Source of the DNA: Acidimicrobiia bacterium
GTDB taxonomy: Bacteria > Actinomycetota > Acidimicrobiia > Spongiisociales > Spongiisociaceae
Assembly (NCBI GenBank): GCA_041576165.1
Contig: JBFGLM010000003.1
Coordinates: 84,839-148,838 of the forward strand
Direction of reading: 5' to 3'
Length of the DNA: 64,000 nucleotides
Position numbers and translations under genes: made by a program. Each line of letters opens with the position of its first letter. The first letter of the stretch is position 1. Under the pieces are notes generated by a model. That model was given only the letters and a program-made list of their open reading frames with translations. It was not told the DNA's origin and did no database searches. Of the stretch, positions 32,695 through 34,630 are shown piece by piece.

Positions 32695-32726
32695 GCGTTC
32701 AGTTTGGCCGTTCCGAGAGGTGATGG

Positions 32727-33722
32727 GTGACAGACATCCCGGTCCAGGATCCGGCAAGTGGGCTCGACCCTGTCGATTTCGAACCGGTGGGACCCAAAGT
32801 AAAAGAACCCTTCCCGGATCTGGTGCTTCCCGATCAGACGGGCGCCCTCGTCGATCTGCATGCGCATCGGGCGGGTCGACGGGCGATTGTTGTATTCCAC
32901 CGCAGCGCCGACTGGTGACCGTGGTGCAAGATGCAGCTGGTCGAGCTGCAGGAATCGACTGCCGCGTCCGGCATTGCCGTGTTTGCAATCAGCTACGACC
33001 CGGTAGATGTCCTGGCCGGCTTTGCCCGGGAGCACAACATCACCTATCCGTTGCTGGCCGACGTTGGCTCAAAAGCGATCGAAGAGCTCGGCTTGCTTCA
33101 CCAGGACATGGACCGGGAACGCGCCTACTGGGGTCGTGAGACGGAGGACCGGCACCGCCGGCTGCCGTACCCGGCCACTTTCGTGCTCGACGAAGACGGG
33201 CTCGTAGTCGACAAAGTGATCGAGCGGTCACACCGCAACCGGCCGACGGGCCAGATGTTGCTCGAGGATCTCGGCGTCGGACCGACGGCGGGGGAGGTGC
33301 AGGCCTCCGCGGCCGGTGACGGGCTCGCCGTCACCGCCTGGGTCCCGGCGGCCGACTACTTCCCGAACCAGATCTTCCGGGTGGGAGTTCGGGTGGCAGT
33401 GGCGGATGGGTTACATCTGTACGTACCGCCGACGCCTAGCTGGTACCAGCATCTCGACGTCTCCATCGACGCGCCACCGGGCGTCTACTGGGACCCGCCC
33501 CACCTCCCGGAGGGAGCATCCTTCCGGGTCGACGGGCTCGATGAAGAGTTCTGGGTTGTGGACGGCAGCGTGACCCTGTCGTGTCCGGTGCATATCCACG
33601 AGGACGTGGGAGACGTCGTTCTCGGTGTGAGGGTGCGGTACCAGGCGTGCAGCTCGGACGCGTGCCTGATTCCCGACAACCTGGCGTTGGAGCTGCCGCT
33701 GCGGAGCCGGGGGAAGCTGTGA
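32727..33722 (+). CDS. Probable selenoprotein: AhpC/TSA peroxiredoxin-like domain (UxxC) fused to a DsbD N-terminal-like domain
   Basis: ORFs 32727..32918 and 32931..33722 are in the same frame. Read-through gives FHRSADW-U-PWCKMQLVEL. C-terminal YQACSSDACLIP. A hairpin follows the TGA. Confidence 0.85.
32932..32950 (+). other. Candidate bacterial SECIS hairpin
   Basis: TGCAGCT-GGTCG-AGCTGCA, a perfect 7-bp stem with a G-initiated loop 20 nt after TGA 32916-32918. Confidence 0.7.
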
Positions 33723-34630
33723 CGTACGAGGTGCGCGTCGGCGGCTATGCCCCCCGTGACTCGACCCACAGCCAGGCCGTTGCGCATTTCGCTGAGCGCT
33801 TCAACCGGCGCTTGGGCCGTGATGACGCAGTGGACATCTTGTGGAACATCCTCGACGAGAGTCGGCCCGCTTCGGACCTGCTGTCGATGGTCGAGGCCGG
33901 CGAATTGACCTGGTGCTACTTCTCGTCGAGCTACCTGGGCTCCCGGGTGCCGGAACTCAACGCACTGGAGCTGCCGTTTCTCTTCTCCAGCCTCGACGAG
34001 GCGCATGCCGCCCTCGATGGCGAGTTCGGTGCGTGGCTCACGGCCGCCACCGAGCGGCGCACGCCTTACGAGGTGCTCGGCTACTGGGACAACGGGTTTC
34101 GTCATTTCACCAACCGGCTTCGGCCCGTCCGGCAGCCATCCGACGTCACTGGGATGACGGTGCGACTGCAGCCGAACGCCATCCATGAGGCGATGGTGGA
34201 AGCTTGGGGCGGCGTTCCGCGGCCGGTGGAATTGAGCGAAGGTATCCGGCTCATCTCCGCAGGCGAAGTCGACGCCCAGGAGAATCCACTCGCCAACACC
34301 GTGGCCTACGAGGTCGATCAGGTACATCACCACGTCACCATGTCCGGCCACCTGTACGGGGCGAGAGGCCTGTACGCCAACCGCGCCGCGCTCGCGGCCA
34401 TGCCACCGGTGGTTGCCGCAGCAGTCCGGGCCGCCGCCTGCGACGCGATCATGTTCCAGCGCGGTGCCGCCGCCGCGTATGAGGCCGAACTACGGCGCCG
34501 GCTCGAAGGACGTGGCGTCGAGTTCGTGGACCTCACCGGACCAGAGCGGGAGCAGTTCGTCGCTGCCACCGCTGGTGTCATCGAACGAGCACGTGCGGAT
34601 CAACCAGCGGACACCCCGTGGCCAGCGTGA
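33719..34630 (+). CDS. TRAP transporter DctP-type substrate-binding protein, no evident signal peptide
   Basis: LELPFLF, WDNGFRHFTN and VDAQENP motifs; GTGA coupling with the upstream stop. Confidence 0.85.
   Translation: MTYEVRVGGYAPRDSTHSQAVAHFAERFNRRLGRDDAVDILWNILDESRPASDLLSMVEAGELTWCYFSSSYLGSRVPELNALELPFLFSSLDEAHAALDGEFGAWLTAATERRTPYEVLGYWDNGFRHFTNRLRPVRQPSDVTGMTVRLQPNAIHEAMVEAWGGVPRPVELSEGIRLISAGEVDAQENPLANTVAYEVDQVHHHVTMSGHLYGARGLYANRAALAAMPPVVAAAVRAAACDAIMFQRGAAAAYEAELRRRLEGRGVEFVDLTGPEREQFVAATAGVIERARADQPADTPWPA

Follow-up and report, generated by a model that had tools for sequence, protein, structure and literature searches.

The 64-kb stretch of DNA analysed here (the window) carries on its forward strand a single reading frame that runs from a GTG at 32727 to a TGA at 33720–33722 and is interrupted only once, by a TGA at 32916–32918 in the motif RSADW-TGA-PWC. 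Because of this one internal codon, translation table 11 yields two ORFs, 32727..32918 and 32931..33722. We read the locus as one gene, with the internal TGA translated as selenocysteine (Sec, U), and the features on which this reading draws are the following.

32715..32720, + strand: Shine-Dalgarno-like GAGAGG 5' of the start, read off the sequence
32727..33722, + strand: whole putative selenoprotein gene, GTG start, TGA stop, 331 codons plus stop (translation with TGA as U)
32799..33209, + strand: Prx-like thioredoxin-fold domain with U64-P-W-C67 (residues 25–161; Pfam AhpC-TSA, PF00578, E 9.6e-22)
32916..32918, + strand: predicted Sec codon UGA, residue U64 of W-U-P-W-C, a conserved TGA column in the homologues
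32932..32950, + strand: predicted SECIS hairpin, stems 32932–32938 (UGCAGCU) and 32944–32950 (AGCUGCA), loop GGUCG at 32939–32943
32933–32939 with 32943–32949, + strand: family-conserved core pairs of the hairpin, from pairing in 78 sequences
33345..33680, + strand: DsbD-alpha/ScsB-alpha-like Ig-fold domain (residues 207–318; Pfam DsbD_N, 30.2 bits against a cut-off of 25)
33648..33665, + strand: Cys308-x4-Cys313 in YQACSSDAC (codons 33648–33650 and 33663–33665), conserved in aligned homologues
33719..34630, + strand: downstream DctP-family gene (Pfam DctP, E 1.4e-47), start GTG overlapping the stop of the selenoprotein gene (GTGA)

Translation bears out the initial annotation of this DNA, which had described two in-frame ORFs parted by one TGA at the first redox position of W-TGA-P-W-C, a product of about 331 residues (read-through gives exactly that number) and the peptide YQACSSDAC, with C308 and C313, in the C-terminal part. 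The hairpin it had described is likewise right in every coordinate, with a perfect 7-bp stem that starts 13 nt 3' of the TGA and a GGTCG loop that starts after 20 nt.

A further claim, that the gene heads a catabolic operon, stands only in part. It may hold locally, given the GTGA overlap with the DctP-family gene, 3' of which lie closely packed SDR and 3-hydroxyisobutyrate-dehydrogenase-like genes, and co-transcription of the selenoprotein gene with those downstream genes is plausible in the source genome. The operon context is not, however, a trait of the family, since the window locus has no neighbour in common with the other loci: among 393 crude flanking ORFs from 81 loci the largest cluster spans four loci and none includes the window locus. 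Nor does gene neighbourhood across the same 81 loci point to a reductant or client. As a separate observation on the downstream gene, the Pfam match of the DctP-family ORF (33719–34630, + strand) begins at residue 9 and its N-terminus, VTYEVRVGGYAPRD..., has no signal peptide; an alternative in-frame start at 33581 adds none either, which is unusual for a periplasmic binding protein.

Conservation of the in-frame TGA

A scan of one genome per species located 431 stretches that encode a relative of the protein. The best 80 of the 431 were fetched and, together with the window and two genomes of the same order (G049 and G059), make up a set of 83 loci and 85 sites, the difference arising because one locus (L114) has three tandem copies. 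TGA occupies the same column in 80 of these 85 sites, and the remaining five (L097, L103, L107, L113 and L121) have a Cys codon, TGT or TGC, in its place; both a conserved TGA and Cys-containing homologues, which the initial annotation had suggested looking for, are therefore present. The titles of the locus records name Acidimicrobiia, Chloroflexota, Dehalococcoidia, Methylomirabilota/Rokubacteria, Acidobacteriota, Gemmatimonadota, Myxococcota, Binatia and others. Among 60 same-order relatives, full-length orthologues occur only in G049 (53% identity) and G059 (48%), each with one in-frame TGA at the same column within W-stop-P-W-C, and the 28 same-family genomes gave no full-length match to this query. 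Residues R59, S60, W63, U/C64, P65, C67, Q306 and C308 are invariant in 78 aligned sequences; C313 is present in 77 of the 78, the lone exception having what looks like a frame-shifted tail.

The prediction that standard annotation would split the gene is borne out in the databases, where 113 of the 120 listed protein relatives cover at most 79% of the query and start at a Met just 3' of the TGA. The seven longer ones comprise three with WCPxC (P0042, P0054 and P0067), three with WWPxC and one with a deletion; we take WWPxC to reflect a gene caller that used code 4 and translated the TGA as Trp. If the TGA were instead a true stop, the locus would be a pseudogene or a pair of genes, encoding a 63-residue fragment and a 263-residue protein from ATG 32931. 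That ATG exists, table 11 gives exactly these two ORFs and public gene calls use the 263-residue form, but such a reading does not explain a TGA kept across several phyla at 30–55% identity with Cys codons elsewhere. Nor does it agree with the protein itself, for read-through supplies the rest of the thioredoxin fold as an open and conserved N-terminal part, and the 263-residue product is left without strands and the first redox residue of that fold. We regard a true stop at this position as very improbable.

The initial annotation had named TGC or TGT in place of the TGA as a finding that would count against a selenoprotein. Metagenome contigs from four runs of three studies, one run of the first study being possibly the source sample, cover 32916–32918 and list TGA and no other letter. 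In the same contig searches, sequences of other organisms converge on 55–60 nt at window positions 32896–32954, running from RSADW-UGA through the hairpin, with loose ends on both sides, and contig depth is 13–27 in the bin that holds the TGA as against about 5–8 in most flanking bins. The stretch 32896–32954 is conserved across organisms at the level of nucleotides.

The hairpin and the selenocysteine machinery

Within the 64-kb window, counting both strands, comparable hairpins follow only 7 of 1608 TGA trinucleotides, TGA 32916 included, where a comparable hairpin has a perfect stem of at least 7 bp that starts 8–20 nt downstream and a loop of 3–8 nt with G in position 1 or 2. The 76 nt around the hairpin (32910–32985) have a folding energy that is ordinary for this G+C-rich DNA (z = -0.59), so that position and conservation, not energy, make the case for it. 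An Rfam search of 32700–33200 at E up to 10 gave chance-level matches alone, with no SECIS family among them.

Conservation was scored over seven pairs, nucleotides 18–24 with 28–34 numbered from the U of the UGA. In the 78 aligned Sec sites these pairs are formed in 94.5% of cells, compared with 10–44% when the 3' partner is slid by one to three columns, and the pairing and covariation scores of the hairpin are reached by none of 500 shuffles. The hairpin also overlaps a conserved peptide, QLVELQ, whose codons double as the SECIS stem-loop. Since hairpin conservation thereby largely coincides with conserved amino acids, selection on the RNA can be separated from selection on the protein only by compensatory changes and by the contrast between Cys and Sec forms, and both are available here. 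Compensatory double-sided changes are seen at four of the seven pairs (GC>AU in 10 sequences, GC>CG in 2 and CG>GC in 4); two loci, L082 and L087, have ELVEFQ in place of QLVELQ, and a CG>GC swap at pair 19–33 preserves their stem. The Sec sites have 529 of 560 cells paired, six core pairs kept in 77 of 80 sites and the loop G25-U26 in all 80, whereas in the Cys forms the corresponding figures are 25 of 35 cells, one of five and, for the loop G-U, two of five. Val72, the codon of which supplies the loop G-U, is changed to Ala or Ile in Cys forms only. The hairpin has decayed in four of the five Cys forms and persists in the TGA forms.

The SECIS element of E. coli fdhF is a short hairpin soon after the UGA with G-U in its apical loop (GGUC). 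The window loop, GGUCG, is comparable in position, starting at nucleotide 24 from the U of the UGA, and unlike the fdhF element in stem sequence and lower stem. Because the GGUCG loop sits where the fdhF loop sits, we infer that the UGA is read as Sec; on this comparative evidence SelB with Sec-tRNA(Sec) would bind the hairpin 13 nt past the UGA and insert Sec at codon 64. The window hairpin also lies just 3' of the UGA and has a G in a small apical loop, as the Sargasso Sea study (PMC1088965) requires of such elements.

Machinery for the insertion of Sec is present in the source genome, where the initial annotation had proposed to look for selA, selB, selC and selD. The assembly (G000) is a metagenome bin of 5.1 Mb in 161 contigs, 96.5% complete with 7.5% contamination, and contains two tRNA-Sec genes with anticodon TCA (C1:33376-33466 and C145:1292-1382), two selA-selB pairs (C24:55512-58621 and C100:605-3619) and selD (C1:171385-172317, minus strand, 397 bits to its family). 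Because selD is itself interrupted by a single in-frame TGA, its product too looks like a selenoprotein in this genome. Across the order, selA scores above its cut-off in 57 of 61 genomes (a tally that includes the unpublished G032 and G043), and the 56 relatives among these have a single match each above that cut-off; the doubling occurs in the source bin alone. Given the doubled tRNA-Sec, selA and selB, the contamination of 7.5% and the size of 5.1 Mb, this may be a mixed bin of two related organisms, and the possibility exists in a strict sense that one of them supplied the window contig and the other the Sec genes. The doubling qualifies the evidence from the machinery but does not contradict it.

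The last alternative for the codon, that TGA stands for another residue such as Trp (as in code 4 or code 25) or that sequencing misread a TGC or TGT as TGA, has the WWPxC relatives in its favour and is next to negligible, since TGA is also the gene's own stop and that of many orthologues, homologues without TGA have Cys and not Trp at the site, the Sec machinery is present and the contigs list no other letter. The conserved TGA, the Cys homologues, the covarying hairpin and the Sec machinery together uphold the hidden selenoprotein that had been proposed, and we conclude that 32727..33722 is very probably one gene for a 331-residue selenoprotein, with UGA 32916–32918 read as Sec. A run search found no RNA sequencing runs containing the gene.

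Two side observations concern other redoxins. The source genome has a second thioredoxin-fold match with one in-frame TGA (C64:21418-21894, minus strand), and many weak redoxin matches in same-order relatives also have a single TGA; as such matches recur, the order seems rich in redoxin selenoproteins.

Domain architecture and cellular location

Both Pfam assignments are above their cut-offs (AhpC-TSA at 77.7 bits against 26, and DsbD_N as listed above), in agreement with the peroxiredoxin-like and DsbD-N-like domains first proposed for the two halves of the protein. No NCBIfam model reaches its cut-off, the thiol-peroxidase models scoring 35 bits against 140 and ResA 20.8 bits against 170. 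An AlphaFold2 model built on 78 homologues has a pLDDT of 94.2 and a pTM of 0.90. Residues 21–187 of this model match peroxiredoxins best, AhpE (5id2_A) at Z 20.2 with an rmsd of 2.0 over 146 aligned residues and BcpB at Z 19.6, and PrxQ (4gqf_A) matches the N-terminal domain with a Foldseek E of 4.4e-11; ResA (Z 15.3) and CcmG (Z 12.4) are weaker matches. Residues 189–326 match the periplasmic N-terminal domain of ScsB (6c29_A), which is of the DsbD-alpha type, at Z 11.6, with an rmsd of 2.6 over 125 aligned residues, at rank 50. This ScsB-alpha fold match came from the structure search only: the best 60 of 173 matches of the family profile to PDB sequences were to the N-terminal domain alone, and the C-terminal 142 residues gave no match to PDB sequences at E up to 10.

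The active site sets the N-terminal domain apart from its nearest structural relatives. PrxQ/BCP and AhpE (4gqf, 5id2, 5epf) have the peroxidatic motif PxxxTxxC where this protein has RSADW-U-P-W-C, with Ser60 in place of the Pro and Sec64 in place of the Thr, both columns being invariant in 78 sequences. For these reasons, and because its active site is W-U-x-x-C, the domain is not a canonical peroxiredoxin. With ResA, CcmG and TlpA it shares a site of the W-C-x-x-C type in a thioredoxin fold with a Prx-like insertion; unlike it, those are exported or membrane-anchored Cys proteins.

The C-terminal domain resembles DsbD alpha and the N-terminal domain of ScsB (6c29, Proteus mirabilis) in its Ig-like beta-sandwich and in a Cys pair near the C-terminal strands. 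The conserved Cys pair of DsbD alpha is thus represented here by Cys308 and Cys313, for which a redox role is predicted from conservation. The E. coli DsbD alpha pair is Cys103/Cys109, and here the spacing is x4. The window domain further differs in having neither a membrane beta domain nor an export signal, so that two marks of DsbD alpha, a periplasmic location and a position N-terminal to the membrane-embedded DsbD beta domain, are not found. The DsbD-alpha fold is otherwise known from the cell envelope.

The location of the protein follows from its N-terminus. An in-frame stop at 32721–32723, two codons 5' of the GTG, together with a hydrophilic N-terminus without a hydrophobic segment, rules out a signal peptide, as had been suggested at the outset, and there is no transmembrane domain in the 331 residues. 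On the lack of a signal peptide we take the protein to be cytoplasmic. The family as a whole is divided in this respect. Judged by a crude hydrophobicity rule, the N-terminus is signal-like at 25 of 83 sites (L090 being borderline among the 25) and not so at 58, with L082 and L087 unscored and the records of L098 and L100 ending too near upstream to score. The signal-like group includes all five Cys forms and all other scored acidobacterial and gemmatimonadal loci; the Acidimicrobiia, Chloroflexota and Methylomirabilota forms have no signal-like N-terminus. As signal-like N-termini split by group in this way, the family has exported and signal-less branches, and the window protein belongs to the signal-less one.

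Proposed function and relation to known selenoproteins

We propose that the N-terminal Prx-like thioredoxin fold acts through W-U64-P-W-C67, a UxxC site of the thioredoxin type. The exposed U64 selenolate, with C67 as resolving residue, would exchange selenenylsulfide and disulfide bonds with Cys308/Cys313 of the fused alpha-like domain, and in this way the protein would transfer reducing equivalents between a reductant upstream of it and a client, either a protein or a peroxide. There is precedent for the pairing of domains, in that DsbD-gamma and CcmG exchange with DsbD-alpha and CcmG is a known partner of that domain. By this analogy we give selenol/thiol exchange between U64 and Cys308/Cys313 roughly even chances.

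The main functional rival to a relay keeps the selenoprotein and makes it a peroxidase, in which U64 reduces peroxides and C67 and then Cys308/Cys313 resolve and recycle the selenenic acid, the C-terminal domain serving as a built-in reductant. The nearest structures to the N-terminal domain are indeed peroxiredoxins, ahead of ResA and CcmG, Pfam places the domain in AhpC-TSA, and relays of the ScsB/TlpA type that feed envelope peroxiredoxins have been described. The placement of Sec at the first, thioredoxin-type position of W-U-x-x-C, the loss of the Pro and Thr of PxxxTxxC to Ser60 and Sec64 and the distance of the thiol-peroxidase models from their cut-off all speak against it, and we consider a peroxidase unlikely.

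Returning to the relay, we advance a more specific and more tentative hypothesis, which we hold to be possible at somewhat less than even chances. The signal-less branch (Acidimicrobiia, Chloroflexota and Methylomirabilota) may represent a cytoplasmic use of the DsbD-alpha fold as a self-contained relay from selenolate to dithiol, the alpha-like domain being charged or discharged by the Sec redoxin domain, and the invariant QLVELQ helix may be held mainly by the needs of the SECIS RNA and less by those of the protein.

Selenoproteins of this kind have been known since 2004–2008 and are routinely cut in two by gene callers. The Sargasso Sea study (PMC1088965) describes a Prx-like protein family in which UxxC takes the place of TxxU, and a 2026 review (PMC13188914) lists a Prx-like thiol:disulfide oxidoreductase of PF00578 with UxxC/UxxU as a high-confidence prediction and quotes PxxxTxxC as the peroxiredoxin motif. 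Dataset S1 of the GOS study (PMC2398784) contains under '#Prx-like 1' reads with ...RSADWUPYCKAQLVELQ..., in which QLVELQ appears 12 times, and one read that continues to ...YQACDDAIC.... As these reads carry both QLVELQ and YQACDDAIC, the subfamily had been collected as a selenoprotein by 2008. Prx-like 1 and the window protein share the PF00578 fold, UxxC with Sec first, homologues with Cys at the Sec position and a SECIS immediately 3' of the UGA; they differ in that another Prx-like 1 entry of Dataset S1, a single example, has one domain and the window protein two, and the window protein moreover has no signal peptide. A fusion of a Prx-like selenoprotein domain with DsbD_N (PF11412) was not found named in the literature searched, on which Figure S1 of PMC2398784 and other supplements may bear.

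Current knowledge of selenoproteins is not overturned by this locus, and what it adds is only mildly new: the fusion architecture, the presence of a DsbD-alpha-like domain in a protein without a signal peptide, which we take to be cytoplasmic, and the example of a SECIS within codons. Relatives are present in at least 431 species-level genomes, and the truncated database entries bear names such as 'peroxiredoxin' or 'DsbD family protein'. The family also offers a clean teaching case of a SECIS inside conserved codons, with Cys forms that lose the hairpin as a built-in control, and the lack of an export signal on its DsbD-alpha-like domain is a hint of an unstudied cytoplasmic thiol relay.

Two further observations concern other members of the family. 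A Longimicrobiales record (L114:679-3225) has three tandem fusion genes, and each of them has the redox-site TGA, a hairpin of its own and an N-terminus that is signal-like. A sub-branch (loci L046, L048, L051 and L054 and proteins P0069, P0076, P0079, P0084 and P0089) has a conserved C-terminal extension of about 80 residues (...NPGYE...RRIVE.P...) past the alpha-like domain.
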